A DNA stretch of 14,491 bases from a virus. The notes under the pieces are model-generated. The model was not told the origin of the DNA and did no database searches. It worked only from the letters and a program-made list of their open reading frames with translations. The stretch's first letter is position 1. Every line of letters begins with the position of its first letter. Both the position numbers and the translations under genes were made by a program. Positions 2,337-14,491 of this stretch are shown one piece after another. The stretch is from UHGV virus genome UHGV-0168752; one strand, written 5' to 3'.

Positions 2337-3151
2337 TAGAGCACTCCCAGTAATTCAGTCACTGTTTTCCGAGCGGCACCGGACGCACCCATATAGCGAC
2401 CGACCTCAATACTACGCCACTCAAAACCGTAATAAATTTCTCGGGTGAGTAGGGTGTCTGCATTTGACAACACGACACTGTTGCCACGTTCCACCTGCTG
2501 CTGTAGTAACTTGGCTAATTCTCGATGATCCGTTTGTGAGAATTCTTTACGGTGGTATTGCGCATGTTTCGCGGTATCCGATAACGGAATATAAGGAGGA
2601 TCGGCATAAATCACGGCATCCTCAGGTGTCCGCGCCAGTACGGAACGAAAGTCTTCACAAACGATTTCCAAATAATCCACTTCTGCGCAACGTTTAGCCC
2701 AGTCTCGAATTTCTTCTAACGGGTAATAAACACCGTTCGGGTAACGTCCAAACGGAACATTGAACCCACCACTACTGTTATAGCGACACATCCCGTTATA
2801 GCCGTGACGCATTAAGTATAAAAACATCGCTGCCCGTTCAACGTCTGACATCGATTTACCGCTATTAAACAGCTCACGACGTTCCATATACCTTACTGTA
2901 GTATTACCGTCTAAGAACAATGGCTGAGACGCAGCAATCAGTTCTTCAGGTTGTTCACGTGCAACACAGAGTAAGCGTATCAGATCAGGGTTAGAATCTG
3001 ATAGAATATACCGGCTATAATTCGTATTTAGGAAGACAGAGCCTGCACCCACAAACGGTTCTACAAACGTTGTACGTTTAGGTAAGACCTTTTGTAATTC
3101 TCCTAAAACACGGGTTTTCCCACCCATCCATTTAATAATCGGTTTCCGCAT
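2336..3151 (-). CDS. dam: DNA adenine (N6) methyltransferase, Dam family
   Basis: Translation has KWMGGK near the N-terminus, FVEPFVGAGSVF (SAM-binding FxGxG), NGMCRYNSSGGFNVPFGRY and the catalytic DPPY, colinear with E. coli Dam and T4 Dam as I recall them. Confidence 0.9.
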   Translation of the reverse strand: MRKPIIKWMGGKTRVLGELQKVLPKRTTFVEPFVGAGSVFLNTNYSRYILSDSNPDLIRLLCVAREQPEELIAASQPLFLDGNTTVRYMERRELFNSGKSMSDVERAAMFLYLMRHGYNGMCRYNSSGGFNVPFGRYPNGVYYPLEEIRDWAKRCAEVDYLEIVCEDFRSVLARTPEDAVIYADPPYIPLSDTAKHAQYHRKEFSQTDHRELAKLLQQQVERGNSVVLSNADTLLTREIYYGFEWRSIEVGRYMGASGAARKTVTELLGVL

Positions 3152-4130
3152 TATATCCGCCTTGTAACGATGACACTTCGTCGCCTAACACTAATTCGAC
3201 CCGGTTTTTCCGACGCTCCCAGCTGACAACATCATCGTCGCGTACTAAAACAAATTCGTATTCGTAGGGACGGAATTTAAACAAATCTACGGCTAGGTGT
3301 CTAAATGCAGGGTTGTTATTGTAACACCCTATTTCTAATGGCGCTGCCGTGGTCGATGCAATCTGTAAAGCACGATACAACAAGGCACGGCCAATCCCAC
3401 GACCACGATGCGTTTCACTTACCGCAATGGCTTTTAATTCACACTCGTTGAGATTACGCAATTTGACTTGAACCACACCCACAACGTCATTACCGTCCAT
3501 CCAAACGTAGGTGTGGTGATTGATGTGACGTACTAACTCCACCAACGTTTCGACTTGTGGCATGATTTGCCGAGAACGGCCTACAGGGTCAGCATTGATG
3601 TTTTCAACAACACTGGTACCCAACAACAGCATAAGTTGTTCACGTTGTGCAGCGTTTAAATCTTTATAAAGATCGCCAGAAATATTCTTCACGTTCGTCG
3701 GTAATGTAACATCCAATAACGTACGTGTCCCTAAGCGGTATGAGGTCTGTGTATGCCTAAATCCGAAGTCATTAAGCTCAGCAATTTCTTCCACGCCTCT
3801 GGCAATTCGATTGAGGTATGTAAAACCAGTATAGTCCAGTACCAGTAAAAGGTTCAGTTTGTTCAAACACCCTGGTACAATTTCGTGCATATACAAGCAG
3901 TGTAACGTTGGGTCACCGTAAATATGTTTTGTGATGATAAACCCTTGAATCGTTTTTCCTTTTTGTAAAGAGAACGTATTCAGCTCAGTATTACACAACG
4001 CCTCGCGAATCACAGCACCGTTAGGACCCGTTAAACATGCCTGAAGTTGGGGATTACGAATATCTCTTCGTGCTAAGCGTCCTACGGTTAAATCCAGAGC
4101 GGTACGTTCTATAGTCTTCCTAAAAGCCAT
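3132..4130 (-). CDS. GNAT-domain acyltransferase-like protein with N-terminal extension (332 aa; possibly tandem GNAT)
   Basis: C-terminal region contains VSETHRGRGIGRALLYRA, matching the GNAT motif A signature (R-x-x-G-x-G/A). AAGGAG 8 nt upstream of the ATG at 4130. The 3-prime end overlaps the Dam start by 20 nt. Confidence 0.7.
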   Translation of the reverse strand: MAFRKTIERTALDLTVGRLARRDIRNPQLQACLTGPNGAVIREALCNTELNTFSLQKGKTIQGFIITKHIYGDPTLHCLYMHEIVPGCLNKLNLLLVLDYTGFTYLNRIARGVEEIAELNDFGFRHTQTSYRLGTRTLLDVTLPTNVKNISGDLYKDLNAAQREQLMLLLGTSVVENINADPVGRSRQIMPQVETLVELVRHINHHTYVWMDGNDVVGVVQVKLRNLNECELKAIAVSETHRGRGIGRALLYRALQIASTTAAPLEIGCYNNNPAFRHLAVDLFKFRPYEYEFVLVRDDDVVSWERRKNRVELVLGDEVSSLQGGYNAETDY

Positions 4131-4180: not shown

Positions 4181-4216
4181 AAACAAAAAAAAAGAAAGGG
4201 GAACCGAAGTTCCCCC
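4181..4216 (-). terminator. Rho-independent terminator
   Basis: Perfect 7-bp stem GGGGAAC/GTTCCCC (4198-4204 and 4209-4215) with a 4-nt loop (TTCG on the minus strand), followed on the minus strand by TTTCTTTTTTTTTGTTTTT. Confidence 0.8.
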
Positions 4217-4223
4217 GTAATAG

Positions 4224-4811
4224 TTAACCGAACAGTTTACGATGTAAATGGGGGAACCAATTACATATTTCCTTTTTGTAGTTCCGTCCGGTTTTATCCC
4301 AATCGTCTTCTTTGAACAGACTTTCGTCAAAATTCAGATACGATTCGAATTGTTTGTTGAGCATGGTATGTTGCTCTGGAAAACGTACCAGAATTACCGC
4401 GTCCTTTTTATCGAGTGTTTGGACATTCAGAACTTCTGGCGTAAACTTGAAGTAAGCGTTCGCGTCCACCCGTAACCAGTTGGCAAGGCAGATAACATCT
4501 TGTTCGAGCTGGTTCAATATTTCGAACACGTCAGAATCGGGCGCTTCCATGGTTAAACGTAGTAGTAACTTTAACAAATCGTTACCGCTCAGCAAGTCGT
4601 AATGATGTCGTCCTGAGGTGAGACTCACGAGTTCGCCTTCCCATAGCCAGGCCATAAAGTGACAGTTGAAGGGACGGTAGTGATAAATCCGACACTCGCT
4701 AAAAGGACTCAATTTAAGGGTGAGAATAGGGTCTGCTAAAGCGTGTAGCGTGACTGGTGGGAAGATCGCTTTAGGAAACGTAGTGTCTTCTGGTAAGGTT
4801 TCTGTTGCCAT
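4224..4811 (-). CDS. Hypothetical protein (195 aa), co-transcribed with the XRE regulator
   Basis: ATG at 4811 with AGGAG 9 nt upstream. No recognisable motif. Confidence 0.7.
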   Translation of the reverse strand: MATETLPEDTTFPKAIFPPVTLHALADPILTLKLSPFSECRIYHYRPFNCHFMAWLWEGELVSLTSGRHHYDLLSGNDLLKLLLRLTMEAPDSDVFEILNQLEQDVICLANWLRVDANAYFKFTPEVLNVQTLDKKDAVILVRFPEQHTMLNKQFESYLNFDESLFKEDDWDKTGRNYKKEICNWFPHLHRKLFG

Positions 4812-4881
4812 GATTTTTACTCCTGAAATGGTTTGTCGAAAGCACCGAAAAGTTTGGTAACGGGCTGATCTCCAATTAATC

Positions 4882-5232
4882 TTAGAAGCCCAGTGTTTGT
4901 TTAAATACGTTGCTGAGGTAGCTTGGTTTTGTCGCCTTGACGTAATCTAACGCGGACTCTGCGGTTACCTTAACCACACAACGTCCGTTAGTGGACTCAA
5001 ACGTCACGCTGTATTTCAAACGTAACATGTCGGCAACTTTCATTATCATTCCCAGACTTAAACGTTCTGGATGTTCGTTCGCAATTGAAGAAATCACCGA
5101 TGGGGAAACTTTCGCAAGCTGGGCCAATTCACGTTGAGTGATTTTACCACGTTGTAAATGGCGAATGATATAACCCAGACGAATAACTAACTGCTGTTTT
5201 GCAATAGTGACGGTGTTATGTTTGTAAGCCAT
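4882..5232 (-). CDS. XRE-family helix-turn-helix transcriptional regulator (116 aa)
   Basis: N-terminal ITQRELAQLAKVSPSVISSIAN fits the Cro/CI-type HTH pattern. AGGAG 8 nt upstream of the ATG at 5232. Confidence 0.7.
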   Translation of the reverse strand: MAYKHNTVTIAKQQLVIRLGYIIRHLQRGKITQRELAQLAKVSPSVISSIANEHPERLSLGMIMKVADMLRLKYSVTFESTNGRCVVKVTAESALDYVKATKPSYLSNVFKQTLGF

Positions 5233-5304
5233 GGTTATACTCCTTTAGGTTAACAAGTCGGTGTAAAGAGTTAATCGCAACTCTCACTTAAGTAATATCT
5301 ATCT

Positions 5305-5344
5305 GTGAAAAAATAAAATACAGGTACCACCTAACGGTGGTACC
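5305..5344 (-). terminator. Rho-independent terminator
   Basis: Perfect 9-bp stem GGTACCACC/GGTGGTACC (5323-5331 and 5336-5344), 4-nt loop, followed on the minus strand by TGTATTTTATTTTTTCAC. Confidence 0.8.
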
Positions 5345-5351
5345 TAAGCAG

Positions 5352-6089: not shown

Positions 6090-6695
6090 TTACTGGTGGT
6101 CGACAATCGGCTCGCTCCACGTGGTTACCGGTTCCGGCGTACGCAGATTTTGCGTTTGTGCTGACGTTACACACAACAACACTAAACCTTGTCGTGCCAG
6201 ATAATGTTGCATTCTGGCTGCTTCCACGGGAGTGTCAACAATAACGAGCTCAGCGCGCCGTAGCAACGCTAAAGCAGCTTGACCTTCTTGTGGTGTGGTT
6301 AAAGCATCAGAGTCGTCCAGAATGCGTTTAAGGCGGTTATACGCCATCCCGGTTACATTACTCCGACCTGCGCGAAGATCAACAACCATATCGTTATATT
6401 CTCCTACCACCTGTTGCGTCGAGTTTGGATAAAACCGAAACGCAGCACGACGACGTTTACGACGCACCTCAGAAATCGCGCGTTGTAAAACCAACAGTAC
6501 GTATTTCGGTGCAGCTTCACTGTTTGGACGGCGCATCTTTGCTAAACGCGCCGCCAAATCCAAAACTTTCGTTAATGGGTAGCGGTGTTTAAACCCTTCG
6601 CGTTCGATGGTGACACCCCGCTTAGGAAGCTTACCTGTTTTGTTGATATACGACACCGTAATCAGTAGTAATGAATCGAGAATCATCTCTGACAT
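6090..6695 (-). CDS. Hypothetical basic protein (201 aa)
   Basis: ATG at 6695 with GAGGG upstream. Arg-rich segment EVRRKRRRAAFRF. No confident family assignment. Confidence 0.65.
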   Translation of the reverse strand: MSEMILDSLLLITVSYINKTGKLPKRGVTIEREGFKHRYPLTKVLDLAARLAKMRRPNSEAAPKYVLLVLQRAISEVRRKRRRAAFRFYPNSTQQVVGEYNDMVVDLRAGRSNVTGMAYNRLKRILDDSDALTTPQEGQAALALLRRAELVIVDTPVEAARMQHYLARQGLVLLCVTSAQTQNLRTPEPVTTWSEPIVDHQ

Positions 6696-6709
6696 TACAA
6701 CACCCTCTC

Positions 6710-7081
6710 TTAGAACCCCTCGAGAACAGCTTTCACAAATTCGTAAACCGTGCGGCGGTGTTCTTCAAGCGGATAACCAAACTTCGCATAATCGTCGTTC
6801 CAGACAATCGGATAAAGATCGCCTCCACAACTCAGATACCCTTTACGTAGCAGATAATAATCCAGCCCAACTCTAAAATTTAAAGACAGGCTGCCTTGTT
6901 TACTGCATACGTGCAACTGAATCGATTTCACACCGTCGTGTGTTGGCGTTTCAATCGTTTCTGCATACAATACATCCGAGCAACCTTCTAGTGTGCTAAC
7001 GACGTCTCTAAGGTTGTTATTGGCGTCGATGGTTGCGGCACGAAGCGCGTCGGTGTATTGCTGAAGTTCTCGATGGAACAT
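6710..7081 (-). CDS. Hypothetical protein (123 aa)
   Basis: ATG at 7081 with AGGAGA about 9 nt upstream; the start lies 94 nt inside the preceding CDS in another frame. Confidence 0.55.
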   Translation of the reverse strand: MFHRELQQYTDALRAATIDANNNLRDVVSTLEGCSDVLYAETIETPTHDGVKSIQLHVCSKQGSLSLNFRVGLDYYLLRKGYLSCGGDLYPIVWNDDYAKFGYPLEEHRRTVYEFVKAVLEGF

Positions 7082-7620
7082 CCTGCTAATCTCCTGTCTC
7101 TACCGTAAGGCAGAGGAAATGCTTTGTGTTCGAACTCTACCACAACATAAGCCGGGTAGAACAAAAGGTATTTATAAAACGTTGCCAACGTTACGTCTTT
7201 CGGGGTCGCCAGAAAATAATTAAGGTCGGGTGCGTCAGGAAATGCAAAATACAACCCTGTATAAATCTGACCGTTATACAACCCATTAAACGGTGTCACT
7301 ACACACTTCGGATGGGTGGGTTCGACGTGTAACCATCGACTACCGACGTGATAGACGCCCCGTAACGTGCCATTTCGGGTCTTCCCTAAATAACGACAAC
7401 GGATATTCTTTTCCCATGCGCTACGCTGGGTTGGAGAACCGCGCTGGACAAAACGACTTAACGCTTCGGGTGTAAAGTAATCAAAAATGGCTGTGGGTAA
7501 ATACCAACACGTTTTATCGATTCGTACCACTCTCCAGCCAGGACGAAAACCTACAGCGTAACGCTCTACACCAAAAGTATATCTAGACCCGTCGTGAAAC
7601 GGTACGAACCTTGCGCTCAT
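6988..7620 (-). CDS. Hypothetical protein (210 aa)
   Basis: ATG at 7620 with AAAGGAAAT upstream, 1 nt after the GNAT stop. Aromatic-rich; no recognisable motif. Confidence 0.65.
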   Translation of the reverse strand: MSARFVPFHDGSRYTFGVERYAVGFRPGWRVVRIDKTCWYLPTAIFDYFTPEALSRFVQRGSPTQRSAWEKNIRCRYLGKTRNGTLRGVYHVGSRWLHVEPTHPKCVVTPFNGLYNGQIYTGLYFAFPDAPDLNYFLATPKDVTLATFYKYLLFYPAYVVVEFEHKAFPLPYGRDRRLAGCSIENFSNTPTRFVPQPSTPITTLETSLAH

Positions 7621-7621
7621 T

Positions 7622-8092
7622 TTAGATTTCCTTTATCATTTCCCTGCACTCTGTACGAAAACCCATTTTCTCGTACACACTGATGGCTTTAATGTTATTG
7701 TCCAACACATCTAAAGACATCCAGCCACAACCCTTAGATTTTCCGTAGTCACGGACTTTATCCATAAGGGCACGACCGACCCCTTGTGAGCGCGCTTCCT
7801 CTAATACATAGTAATTCCCAATATAGACGAAGTTGTCTTTAGCACAGGAACCCAACGAGAACGTCATAAACCCTAAGAGAGTATCGTTATCGTCAACGGC
7901 GCACGCACACAGATAATCTTGTGGCCAAATCTCTTCCAGTCGTTCTATCGGGTTAAAGGTATCACGACCGGTGAGTTGGCTGATACGCACTTTCTCTTCA
8001 GCGAATAAGTGGTTATGTAAACGTAATACGTCAGCACCGTAACGTTTACCGTATTTACTGTCGGGTTTAAGGATAATAAAGACGCGCATCAT
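7622..8092 (-). CDS. GNAT-family N-acetyltransferase (156 aa)
   Basis: Motif A RSQGVGRALMDKV followed by AISVYEKMGF, typical GNAT core. Start overlaps the upstream stop (ATGA). Confidence 0.8.
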   Translation of the reverse strand: MMRVFIILKPDSKYGKRYGADVLRLHNHLFAEEKVRISQLTGRDTFNPIERLEEIWPQDYLCACAVDDNDTLLGFMTFSLGSCAKDNFVYIGNYYVLEEARSQGVGRALMDKVRDYGKSKGCGWMSLDVLDNNIKAISVYEKMGFRTECREMIKEI

Positions 8093-11454: not shown

Positions 11455-11934
11455 TTAATAAATCTTATCCGCAACAGAGAGAAAGATGGGGGTGTTTTCA
11501 ATAAAGTCCACCAAATATCCTTCTTCCGGCGGGGCGTATGACGAATCAACGTTACCGTTCGTCATACGAAAATACCGACGAGAGTCACTGGCAATAAACC
11601 AACGGTCTATTTGGTAGCCCTTTTTGGAAAAGAAACACAAGCCGTCAATGTTTGAAGGATGGACACGACACATCACTATTTGGCGGTCAGAATTAAGTTG
11701 AACGTACTTCAGTAAGAAAGAACCTACGCCGCTACGACGAGAACCTTCAGCAACTACTAAATAAATAAGATTCCCTGGTTCCCAGATTGCAATTCCGTGA
11801 GTAATATCATCTTCAACGGCTAACGTGATCCTAACCGGTGTTTCCCGGATTGAATTTAAGTCTTTAATGTATTCACGTAATTCAGGAAATTTAGCGGAGA
11901 TTTTATCTTCGGTAATATCTAACTGTTGCATCAT
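11455..11934 (-). CDS. GNAT-like acetyltransferase (159 aa), tentative
   Basis: LVVAEGSRRSGVGSFLLKYV matches the GNAT motif A pattern R-x-x-G-x-G. Start overlaps the upstream stop (TAATGATG). Confidence 0.5.
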   Translation of the reverse strand: MMQQLDITEDKISAKFPELREYIKDLNSIRETPVRITLAVEDDITHGIAIWEPGNLIYLVVAEGSRRSGVGSFLLKYVQLNSDRQIVMCRVHPSNIDGLCFFSKKGYQIDRWFIASDSRRYFRMTNGNVDSSYAPPEEGYLVDFIENTPIFLSVADKIY

Positions 11935-13249: not shown

Positions 13250-13893
13250 TAACGTTTCCTCCGACGCCTTCTCCGCCTGGAGGTCTTCGGCGACTTTTGT
13301 TTAGGCGGTAGCAGGCTGTTTAAATTTAACAGATTTACCCTGACGAAAATGTTTCCCACCGCCACGGCATCGATGCTATGCTCGTCTAACGTTGTAATAT
13401 CAAACAAAGCGTGTTCACGATACAGTTTGGTCACGGCCCGAAACATATCGGTTTTATCCGTTCCCTTTGCTTCCACACCAACGAATGATTTTACAATGAT
13501 AGGATTGAAACCGTGTAAGATTTTCTCCGGGTAAATGTCCCACAGGGCACGTCGCAACATCAGCTGTAATTCAACACCTGATTCGTACGCGGAGAGTTTT
13601 GCTCTCCGCATAAACGGGGTTTCTGTTGCAACGAAGGTTGGGCAAGCAATCCGAAGAAATTCACGGTAACAAGCTTCGAGCTTAACGAGTCGATCGTCAC
13701 GTTTACCGACACACTCTGCGAACGCATTTGGATGCGTTGGGTCTAATACATGCATGGTATCAGCCCAAACTACTTCGGCTTGATCGCTGCCGTATTCCCA
13801 ATCCAATACCGCCATACCAAGATGGCTCGTACCGGGGTCTATTGCCGCGATTCTCACCATCTTATCTGGAAGTCTCGGCTCGGGTATCAACAT
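13249..13893 (-). CDS. RuvC-like Holliday junction resolvase with Arg-rich C-terminal tail (214 aa)
   Basis: IAAIDPGTSHLGMAV (compare RuvC ILGIDPGSRVTGYGV), FVATETPFMRR (compare FAIEQVFMAK) and DEHSIDAVAVG (compare DAADALAIA). C-terminus SRRRRRRRKR. Start overlaps the upstream stop (TAATG). Confidence 0.8.
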   Translation of the reverse strand: MLIPEPRLPDKMVRIAAIDPGTSHLGMAVLDWEYGSDQAEVVWADTMHVLDPTHPNAFAECVGKRDDRLVKLEACYREFLRIACPTFVATETPFMRRAKLSAYESGVELQLMLRRALWDIYPEKILHGFNPIIVKSFVGVEAKGTDKTDMFRAVTKLYREHALFDITTLDEHSIDAVAVGNIFVRVNLLNLNSLLPPKQKSPKTSRRRRRRRKR

Positions 13894-14448
13894 TAATTCG
13901 CTGTCCCCAGGAAGAACGGCGCAGGCTGACCGATACGAATGGTCAGTGACAGTTTATCATTCGTCTGCGCCAGGTTAGTAAACATCGAGATGTAATACAG
14001 CGCCTGGACACCAATCGCTTCGGTGTAACTGAACTTAGACCCAGTTGCGGAATCACCCGACGTGACTTGGTCTAACCCGGAGCAGAGTGCCAGTTCGGAG
14101 ATAATCGAACTACGCGGACTACCGCGCATGATACTCGTCACGTTCATGTATTCCTGAACATCAAAATCCGTCCACGGAATCACCAGGTCAGCACCGGATT
14201 CAACATAACGACCATCAGGAATCGCAACGGTACCGTCATCATCATAATCGTAATCCGGCAATACTTTCGGTACCGGGTTCAATTCTGTATCGGTGTACAC
14301 GAAGTCTTCGACGGTCTCAACACCGTTCTCACGTTTGATATCGTAGTCTGACGTTTTAACCGCGCGCATATCGATGCGTTTTAAGTAATACGCCCAGTAT
14401 TCACGCTTGTTAAACGTTTCCAAAGTACGGAAAGCGTAGTTCTTACGC
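13893..14448 (-). CDS. Hypothetical protein, 5-prime truncated (C-terminal about 185 aa only)
   Basis: Open frame runs into the adapter at 14449; the apparent N-terminus MCIRDRR is translated adapter, so the real start lies beyond the contig end. No recognisable motif in the remainder. Confidence 0.6.
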
Positions 14449-14491
14449 CTGTCTCTTATACACATCTGACGCTGCCGACGACTCCTTACGT
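14449..14491. other. Illumina Nextera adapter (sequencing artefact)
   Basis: CTGTCTCTTATACACATCT (Tn5 mosaic end) followed by GACGCTGCCGACGA (reverse complement of TCGTCGGCAGCGTC), then 8 nt CTCCTTAC and GT. From memory the 8-mer is the reverse complement of a standard i5 index and GT begins the P5 complement. Confidence 0.95.

Follow-up and report, generated by a model that had tools for sequence, protein, structure and literature searches.

The stretch of DNA analyzed here, referred to throughout as the window, comprises 14,491 nucleotides (nt) of the virus genome UHGV-0168752, and all credible genes within its 14.5 kb lie on the minus strand. The subject of this report is a short two-gene unit between positions 4,181 and 5,344, in which a gene for a helix-turn-helix (HTH) protein of 116 amino acids (aa) is followed by a gene for a 195-aa protein that we call X (Table 1). 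Each of the two genes has its own Shine-Dalgarno sequence, AAGGAG at 5245-5240 for the HTH gene and AGGAG, inside the intergenic spacer, for X. The spacer shows no significant folded structure, so the two genes are likely cotranscribed. In two relatives of the phage, designated L005 and L007, the corresponding spacer is just 21 nt long.

Table 1. Features of the HTH-X unit and of its boundaries, listed in the direction of transcription (RBS, ribosome-binding site; UTR, untranslated region).
Feature	Position	Strand	Basis
Intrinsic terminator closing the upstream one-gene dTMP kinase unit	5308..5346	-	Stem-loop 5346..5321, U-rich tail to about 5308
Early-promoter core, TTTTCACA-GATAGATATTAC-TTAAGTGAG	5283..5311	-	Consensus match, multicopy
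Promoter-proximal stem-loop GAGAGTT-gcgatt-AACTCTT, presumed transcript 5' end	5263..5287	-	-7.7 kcal/mol
Conserved 5' UTR box CGACTTGTTAAC, with CGACT at 5260..5256; candidate operator or RNA signal	5249..5260	-	Recurrence in leaders
Gene for XRE-family HTH DNA-binding protein, 116 aa	4882..5232	-	Pfam HTH_3 and HTH_26, phrog_7126, synteny
HTH-X spacer, 70 nt, carrying the RBS of X, no terminator	4812..4881	-	Fold z -0.17
Gene for X, a fast-evolving alpha/beta protein, 195 aa	4224..4811	-	Links to gp163 family, within-allele dN/dS
Intrinsic terminator of the HTH-X unit, GGGGAACC-UUCG-GGUUCCCC and U-tract	4185..4216	-	Hairpin 4216..4197, -13.9 kcal/mol

The terminator-bounded anatomy of the unit is near-certain. 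An earlier, sequence-only reading of the window had placed the two genes in a transcription unit of their own between two strong terminators, and both boundaries held up. The upstream hairpin has an 11-bp stem with 6 GC pairs (-19.8 kcal/mol, z -5.9) and is followed by a U-tract, while the downstream hairpin has an 8-bp stem closed by a UUCG loop and is followed by 9 U residues in a row. Both therefore have the features of Rho-independent terminators, a GC-rich hairpin with a U-tract, at a position that is conserved among relatives. At the upstream boundary, L007 and Salmonella phage SPN3US keep the position of the hairpin with a different stem sequence; at the downstream boundary, L007, L005, and SPN3US have a hairpin at the matching position, with the UUCG loop on another stem. 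Such bounding is not unusual in the window, which contains 6 strong minus-strand terminators and in which the neighboring dTMP kinase gene forms a one-gene unit.

Gene content and gene order identify the source of the window as a virulent, chimallin-encoding (nucleus-forming) jumbo phage of enterobacteria that is distantly related to SPN3US, itself treated in the literature as a nucleus-forming phage (PMC10643120). The window and SPN3US are syntenic gene by gene, the common order being a DprA-like gene, an internal head protein, a GNAT acetyltransferase, three hypothetical genes, dTMP kinase, the HTH gene (gp165 in SPN3US), a second GNAT gene, and a Dam methylase. Near-identical copies of the window were found on contigs of 37 to 108 kb (L003 and L004), and a near-identity DNA search of phage records gave no match to it. 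The closest complete relative is NZ_CP173450.1, a 221,873-bp entry deposited as a "plasmid" of Escherichia coli 98232 (p98232). Its products include homologs of the SPN3US chimallin ChmA (55% identity), the virion RNA polymerase beta subunit (67%), the major capsid protein (78%), and the large terminase TerL (81%).

Read in the coding direction, the upstream terminator is followed by TTTTCACA-GATAGATATTAC-TTAAGTGAGAGTTgcgattAACTCTT-TACAC-CGACTTGTTAAC-CTAAAGGAG-...ATG. Within the promoter core, the GATAGATATTAC block occupies 5303..5292 and GTGAG occupies 5287..5283, and GATAGATATTAC-TTAAGTGAG together span 5303-5283. The sequence-only reading had pointed to a degenerate operator half-site just upstream of the HTH gene. 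That sequence, TTAAGTGAGAG, is indeed present at 5291-5281, but it lies inside the core, and its GTGAG matches the 3' end of the phiKZ/OBP-type early-promoter consensus (...ATATTAYYWAAGTGWA); as the downstream part of an element with about 15 copies per genome, it is not a private operator. Early promoters of this kind have been predicted for N1M2 (TTTCARRYAKATATTATYWAAGTGWA), OBP, 201phi2-1, and phiKZ (TATATTAC) (PMC7058600), and according to a review, conserved AT-rich motifs centered near -10 mark the early promoters that the virion RNA polymerase uses (PMC7598289). The element of the window also stands in front of the HTH ortholog in L005, L007, L015, L016, SPN3US, and SNU29; in ChrisDB it stands in front of a short gene that comes before the HTH gene. 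Across the whole SPN3US genome, a stricter pattern with the core GATAKATWTTAY occurred 14 times on the coding (plus) strand and never on the minus strand; a looser pattern gave 14 versus 1 by strand in SPN3US, and 15 on the coding strand versus 0 on the other in p98232. The copies are intergenic, and nearly all of them lie just 5' of start codons. The HTH-X unit thus has the sequence hallmark of a chimallivirus early unit, namely, an AT-rich consensus upstream that is repeated genome-wide on the coding strand. A scan for sigma-70 promoters showed no enrichment (23 found versus 23.5 expected), and host-type promoters are not the relevant signal at this locus.

Two further elements accompany the promoter. 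A hairpin of 7 to 11 bp was found at the matching place in 14 of the 16 elements of this promoter class; each sequence was folded individually and compared with 300 shuffles, at most 1.7% of which matched it. The stem sequences vary from copy to copy, for example GAGAGTT/AACTCTT in the window, GAGATTAC/GTAATCTC in L007, GAGCGTTA/TAACGC in SPN3US, and also GAGATGAG/CTCATCT, a variability that favors a structural stem, in the simplest case the 5' end of the mRNA, over an operator recognized by a protein through its sequence. The second element, the CGACTTGTTAAC box, sits between the hairpin and the RBS. Its motif, CGACT(A/T)(T/G)T, followed in the window by GTTAAC, accompanies about 40% of the elements, the background frequency being 10 to 13%. 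Counted as CGACY, it occurs in 7 of 14 SPN3US elements (background, 0.13) and 5 of 15 p98232 elements (background, 0.10), and in 9 of the 12 elements that carry it, it stands at a fixed distance of +41 to +46 from the start of the promoter core. Among HTH-operon leaders, those of the window, L005, L007, L015/L016, SPN3US, and SNU29 have the box, and that of ChrisDB is without it. The CGACT box sets a subclass of early leaders apart, to which the HTH operon belongs in most of the phages examined, though not in all.

A different motif was seen elsewhere among the terminators. A palindrome upstream of dTMP kinase, GTGAGaatcCTCAC, was considered as a full operator and rejected, since L007 and SPN3US keep only TTGTGA and not the second arm. 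The palindrome includes the TGTGA part of a motif in which a T-rich stretch ending in TTTAC is followed, after 12 to 20 nt, by (T)GTGA, directly behind terminators upstream of dTMP kinase, GNAT, and other genes; TGTGA recurs in this way downstream of T-rich TTTAC motifs behind other terminators. Sites were noted on the minus strand of the window at approximately 4196-4150, 6058-6010, and 12640-12600 and in SPN3US at 93461, 95795, 100136, and 181015. The strand bias is 7:0 in p98232 and merely 7:4 in SPN3US. The motif recalls a weak AT-rich motif near -24 of the phiKZ middle promoters (PMC7598289), and its sequence may possibly mark a second promoter class.

The product of the first gene is of the XRE regulator type, as had been proposed. 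Residues 26 to 72 score above the Pfam cutoffs for HTH_3 (PF01381; 27.1 bits, cutoff 23) and HTH_26 (PF13443; 26.5 bits, cutoff 22), and residues 1 to 103 match the 120-position profile phrog_7126, annotated as "HTH DNA binding protein," with an E value of 3.1e-30. It is the ortholog of SPN3US gp165. Homologs with 27 to 44% identity occur in 72 jumbo-phage records, from phages of Salmonella, Erwinia, Klebsiella, Proteus, Aeromonas, and others, and the gene comes after dTMP kinase in SPN3US, SNU29, ChrisDB, Caitlin, Asesino, Kwan, and L007. Residues 1 to 100 are conserved among genera, including the recognition helix (S-x-S/P-x-I-S-x-I-x-N-E), and the C-terminal 15 to 25 residues are variable. 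By the database scores, this is a generic XRE protein. Its best sequence neighbors in the PDB are HipB(Lp) (E value, 3e-4), 2o38, restriction-modification (R-M) controller proteins, CylR2, and HigA2, and all of the NCBIfam antitoxin and regulator models scored far below their cutoffs, including HipB (16.7 bits, cutoff 79) and Y4mF/couple_hipB (26.5 bits, cutoff 71.65). In the literature, we found nothing specific on SPN3US gp163 to gp165 or on chimallivirus HTH regulators.

The sequence-only reading had assigned no function to the 195-aa protein, and database searches bear this out. X had no family match in Pfam, PHROG, PADLOC, or NCBIfam (at E values up to 0.1 to 1 for Pfam, NCBIfam, and PADLOC), no PDB match by sequence at E values up to 10, and no tblastn match in 50,697 phage records, and neither SPN3US nor the window contains a paralog. 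A word-indexed search of 5.8 billion proteins returned nothing beyond one cluster of 99% identity. Two homologs, of 223 aa (P0002) and 227 aa (P0003), came from an exhaustive HMMER scan of 1.84 billion representatives, with E values of 3.5e-7 and 2.5e-5, and a profile search brought the X family to about 15 homologous 90% clusters overall. Homologs with 23 to 29% identity to X occupy the matching slot, and the order dTMP kinase, HTH, X, GNAT, and Dam was found for every homolog on a contig long enough to show it.

Pairwise BLASTP detected no similarity of X to SPN3US gp163, SPN3US gp164, or Miami gp203. A link to gp163 is visible only through profiles, with Caitlin gp114 as a bridge. The hidden Markov model (HMM) of the X family (A2) matches Caitlin gp114 (E value, 1.2e-5), the HMM of the gp163 family matches P0003, P0002, and P0011 (E values, 0.002 to 0.04), and ChrisDB gp119 leads to SNU29_50 (E value, about 1e-5), which in turn leads to SPN3US gp163 (about 1e-36). 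Alignment of the X and gp163 profiles with hhalign gave an E value of 1.3e-4 over 190 columns and a probability of 54% with the wider profile. X also shares the position of the gp163 family, as the last gene of the HTH operon ahead of a terminator, GNAT, and Dam. With moderate confidence, these profile, model, and positional links suggest that X is a very diverged positional ortholog of the family comprising SPN3US gp163 and Machinavirus gp114-gp119. Remote homology and structure, the check that the sequence-only reading had named for this protein, yielded this diverged link and no fold match in the PDB.

An AlphaFold2 (AF2) model of X built on a 15-sequence alignment reached a predicted local distance difference test score (pLDDT) of 80 and a predicted template modeling (TM) score, pTM, of 0.78; a single-sequence prediction, with a pLDDT of 37, was not usable. 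The model consists of a five-stranded beta-meander (residues 30 to 67), two long helices (76 to 113), a beta-hairpin (126 to 142), and a long C-terminal helix (171 to 194). No PDB fold matched the model, and no kinase was among the fold matches; the top entry in a BFVD fold search was a 215-aa phage protein (probability 1.0, TM 0.53). R85 is the sole invariant residue of the X/gp163 superfamily. Conservation otherwise falls on hydrophobic positions, with no shared polar or catalytic set, a pattern that speaks against a catalytic toxin and makes it probable that X is no enzyme. The gp163 protein and the 223- and 227-aa alleles carry an N-terminal Lys/Ala/Thr/Pro-rich tail of about 40 residues that is absent from the X of the window. 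As side observations on gp163, it was also found on contigs of 108 to 243 kb in many Salmonella assemblies, and several SPFM phages of Salmonella, with genomes of about 240 kb like that of SPN3US, encode a homolog (P0037 to P0041) that is 31 to 42% identical over about half of its length. The partial match suggests frameshifts, sequencing errors, or local gene replacement.

X clearly stands apart from its neighbors in its rate of change. Between the window and L007, the flanking proteins are 81 to 95% identical, the HTH proteins 56 to 61%, and the X proteins only 25 to 26%. Compared with L005, the promoter and leader show 90 to 93% nucleotide identity, which falls off precisely at the HTH start codon, does not rise above noise along X, and is restored precisely at the terminator. 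Within alleles, close relatives give ratios of nonsynonymous to synonymous substitution (dN/dS, calculated with an in-house Nei-Gojobori script) of 0.03 to 0.26 for X, indicating purifying selection, and X is therefore a real gene. Between alleles, dN is 0.8 to 0.9 for X and 0.36 to 0.39 for the HTH gene, against 0.04 to 0.14 for flanking genes. X or its counterpart is the most diverged gene of the block in all three comparisons, window-L007, ChrisDB-Caitlin, and SPN3US-SNU29, and the HTH gene is second in the first two; between SPN3US and SNU29, the GNAT protein (62% identity) is more diverged than the HTH protein (70%). X alleles of 195, 223, and 227 aa occur in one otherwise 80 to 95% identical phage clade. 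The 223-aa and 227-aa types share only about 40% identity, against 92% for the HTH proteins that accompany them, so X diverges on its own and not in step with the HTH protein. A cassette swap by recombination need not be invoked as the sole cause of the divergence; saturation of silent sites between the two lineages extends to dTMP kinase and Dam, and the difference therefore lies mainly in constraint.

The genes that accompany the HTH gene also differ among phages. In the clade of the window, the operon consists of the HTH gene and X; in SPN3US, it is HTH, gp164, and gp163; in SNU29, a 151-aa gene, a gp164-like gene, and a gp163-like gene follow the HTH gene; and in ChrisDB and Caitlin, the order is a small gene, HTH, a gp164-like gene, and a 215-aa gene. 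Asesino has HTH, a 139-aa gene, and a gp164-like gene, without a gp163-like gene and without GNAT, and in Kwan, Miami, and the Aeromonas phage ZPAH34, other genes lie downstream. Judged by this comparison of sequences, the HTH gene is the constant member of the operon, and the genes behind it are variable cargo.

The reading that we favor, and consider somewhat more probable than all others combined, is that the locus is an early-class operon in which a conserved HTH regulator is coexpressed with a host-facing protein, X, as cargo, the two forming neither a toxin-antitoxin nor a repressor pair. The functional assignments of the HTH protein and X are much weaker than the anatomy. By analogy with the phages reviewed in PMC7598289, the injected virion RNA polymerase would transcribe the HTH-X unit right after DNA entry, so that both proteins would be made in the host cytoplasm before a phage nucleus exists. 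The HTH protein, by its sequence, may be a phage transcription regulator with a conserved DNA target. Most simply, the target would be a motif common to early leaders, such as the CGACT box, where binding could exert feedback on, or shut off, a subset of early promoters; the host chromosome would be an alternative target. Early-gene control, one of the roles that the sequence-only reading had put forward, is plausible in this form, as the unit carries the early-promoter consensus, although not as a switch linked to lysogeny. X, in turn, would be a nonenzymatic binding protein at the phage-host interface, acting in host takeover or antidefense or serving as the target of host sensors; a place at this interface is proposed as the reason why X is the fastest-diverging protein of the block and yet under purifying selection. 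Early chimallivirus proteins are sensed by cytoplasmic host immunity, namely, Avs5 and JADA (PMC12931631), which offers a rationale for rapid divergence of X. The two proteins would then be coexpressed cargo of one promoter and not an obligate pair of toxin and antidote or of repressor and partner.

Several points weigh against this reading. The unit is classed as early through the identity of its motif with promoters that are predicted in related phages (mapped in the case of phiKZ and AR9), and our literature search turned up no transcriptome of either this phage or SPN3US. Only about 40% of the early elements carry the CGACT box, which might act at the RNA level instead. The proposed role of X is drawn only from its evolutionary pattern and the lack of catalytic residues, and weak constraint could also be the cause of its divergence. 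The homology of X to gp163 is weak at the sequence level, the hhalign probability falling to 5.8% with a narrow profile. The model of X comes from a shallow alignment (15 rows, effective number of sequences about 2), with pLDDT values ranging from 56 to 80 across the five models, and the UniProt identity of the 215-aa BFVD entry is tentative.

A bolder form of the favored reading, which we hold only tentatively and regard as rather unlikely, makes the HTH-X operon a hot spot of the host interface, in which an X of new fold disarms a defense or takeover target, or is itself sensed, and the HTH protein is a dedicated feedback regulator. If this were true, host interaction in the unprotected first minutes of infection would drive the turnover of the 195-, 223-, and 227-aa X alleles, and the HTH protein would regulate the hairpin-plus-CGACT-box subclass of virion-polymerase promoters, making it the first sequence-specific transcription factor described for the chimallivirus early program. 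Control of the early program and survival before the nucleus forms are poorly understood in jumbo phages, and nearly all of their early genes are uncharacterized. The locus offers a compact test case, with a promoter of the virion-polymerase class, a 5' hairpin, a leader box, a conserved HTH gene, and its fastest-evolving neighbor side by side. Should the HTH protein regulate early promoters or X meet host immunity, both would give useful access to jumbo-phage biology and to host-range work in phage therapy.

Among the alternatives to the cargo operon, the one that survives best, though we judge it unlikely, is a cognate pair of regulator and modulator, in which X would bind the HTH protein, for example at its variable C-terminal tail, and switch its DNA binding in the manner of an anti- or corepressor, with the two proteins coevolving. 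The fast evolution of both proteins in the window-L007 and ChrisDB-Caitlin comparisons fits such a pair, as do the sharp limits of the L005 divergence at the HTH start codon and the terminator and the confinement of HTH variability to the last 15 to 25 residues. However, the 223- and 227-aa types show X diverging independently under nearly constant HTH proteins, and GNAT outpaces the HTH protein between SPN3US and SNU29. Moreover, the HTH gene and the X homolog are separated by other genes in SPN3US, SNU29, ChrisDB, and Caitlin, and Asesino, Miami, and the Aeromonas phages keep the HTH gene without a recognizable X homolog adjoining it.

A lysis-lysogeny or carrier-state switch, in which the XRE repressor would let the phage of about 222 kb persist as an episome, is very unlikely. 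The argument for it comes from how these phages are recovered. Relatives with about 80% identity have been deposited as circular "plasmids" of complete genomes, from E. coli 98232 (221,873 bp) and Enterobacter ludwigii (222,441 bp), proteins of the window itself occur on contigs of about 223 kb that belong to isolate assemblies of Salmonella and E. coli, and the XRE gene is the only annotated transcriptional regulator in NZ_CP173450.1. Such recovery could reflect a carrier state, pseudolysogeny, or contamination, and carrier cultures or contamination could also explain the coassembly with isolates. The annotation of NZ_CP173450.1 contains no integrase, partition (ParAB), or replication-initiator (Rep) gene, all genes of the window are codirectional, with no divergent cro-like partner, and the genome encodes the lytic toolkit of chimallin and the phage's own virion polymerase. 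The promoter class in front of the HTH gene also serves about 15 other units, and the gene itself is conserved in phages obtained as lytic plaque formers. The lysogeny switch that the sequence-only reading had suggested is thus not supported. As to provenance, the NZ_CP173450.1 isolate (L021 to L025) came from urine, and the Enterobacter ludwigii entry, NZ_CP134650.1 (L016), from a gull cloaca.

More doubtful still is a timing controller resembling the C proteins of R-M systems, by which the HTH protein would delay or boost the downstream gene or genes relative to the nearby Dam methyltransferase. R-M controllers are among the weak PDB matches of the HTH protein (E value, about 0.01), and a Dam-class methyltransferase gene lies two genes downstream, but X has no nuclease motif and no conserved acidic/lysine catalytic set, with its one invariant residue, and the terminator and the GNAT gene separate the unit from the methyltransferase gene. 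Nor was a C-box-like inverted repeat private to the promoter found; the palindrome varies in sequence and occurs at many promoters.

HipA is a Ser/Thr kinase of about 440 aa. The type II toxin-antitoxin system of HipB-HipA type that the sequence-only reading had raised, in which X would be the toxin and the HTH protein its autoregulating antitoxin, is the least probable of all, for although a small HTH gene precedes a larger partner in one operon and the HTH protein has HipB, HigA, and Y4mF antitoxins among its neighbors, all below the family cutoffs (it is not a HipB equivalog), Pfam, NCBIfam, and PADLOC show neither a HipA domain nor any other toxin domain in X, the protein is too unlike HipA in size and lacks conserved catalytic residues, a 70-nt spacer separates the two genes, each of which has its own RBS, one or two genes are intercalated in SPN3US, SNU29, ChrisDB, and Caitlin, the downstream genes differ in Miami, Asesino, Kwan, and ZPAH34 so that the pairing is not kept, and the upstream "operator" is a generic early promoter in a virulent jumbo phage.

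Elsewhere in the window, several features deserve mention. Its end, at 14449-14491, consists of the Nextera transposase adapter CTGTCTCTTATACACATCTGACGCTGCCGACGA (14449-14481) and a 10-nt tail; because the adapter is read through at the contig end, the N terminus "MCIRDR..." of the open reading frame (ORF) 13893..14465(-) is an artifact, and the intact version of this gene, at L003:28-915, encodes a 295-aa DUF7208 protein. Two GNAT acetyltransferase genes are present, one at 3132-4130(-) for a 332-aa protein with a large N-terminal extension (phrog_8663) and one at 7622-8092(-) for a 156-aa protein, and a third GNAT-like ORF of 159 aa at 11455-11934(-) was judged by eye only. The 332-aa protein is 93% identical to its counterpart in L007 and, unlike its neighbors, just about 29% identical to that of SPN3US. 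In the region 6090-7620(-), ORFs 6710..7081 and 6988..7620 overlap by 94 nt, and their SPN3US counterparts overlap too. The ORF of 210 aa there was left uncalled in L003 and L004 (7189-7728 in both) and in NZ_CP173450.1, leaving a gap of about 540 nt, and its product matches phrog_9255 with an E value of 1.7e-60.

Measured against known systems, the promoter is closest to the early promoters of phiKZ-like phages (Chimalliviridae). The window element, TTTTCACAGATAGATATTACTTAAGTGAG, fits the published consensus at almost every base; OBP and N1M2 promoters end in ...TTTCARRYAKATATTATYWAAGTGWA, and that of phiKZ is TATATTAC. Such elements are multicopy, strand specific, and intergenic. The hairpin of varying stem and the CGACT box are observations of our own, for which we found no earlier description.

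Type II systems of the HipB/HipA kind, and others with an XRE antitoxin, resemble the unit in having a small XRE HTH gene upstream of a larger gene in one unit, and HipB and HigA show weak sequence similarity to the HTH domain of the window. They differ in that the unit of the window lacks a toxin domain or catalytic residues, its pairing is loose and not conserved, its upstream element is generic rather than private, and its context is that of a virulent phage.

As an operon, the closest counterpart is gp165-gp164-gp163 of SPN3US, a Seoulvirus (NC_027402.1, 94240-95756). Both loci run from dTMP kinase through a terminator, an early-type promoter with hairpin and CGACT box, and the HTH gene, and both have behind it a gene of about 215 to 227 aa, a terminator, GNAT, and Dam. 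The gp165 protein is 41% identical to the HTH protein of the window. SPN3US differs in having the 128-aa gp164 between the HTH gene and gp163, which is absent from the window, and in the Lys/Ala/Thr-rich N-terminal tail of about 40 residues on gp163, which X is without, and gp163 and X are connected by profile, fold, and position, with no pairwise BLASTP similarity. The Erwinia Machinavirus operons (Caitlin gp112-gp114 and ChrisDB gp117-gp119) encode an HTH ortholog with 34 to 36% identity and share the dTMP kinase, GNAT, and Dam flanks as well as the promoter class. They differ by the extra small gene ahead of HTH and the gp164-like gene behind it, and their last gene, for a protein of 215 aa (ChrisDB gp119, Caitlin gp114), is the best sequence bridge to X. 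Set beside these relatives, HTH-X is an ordinary, though uncharacterized, phage operon; it is a very diverged member of families already known, if uncharacterized, and neither the phage nor the promoter is of an unfamiliar kind. What is noteworthy is the extreme divergence of X within a conserved block, the hairpin-plus-box leaders, and an HTH protein that is conserved across many jumbo-phage genera.

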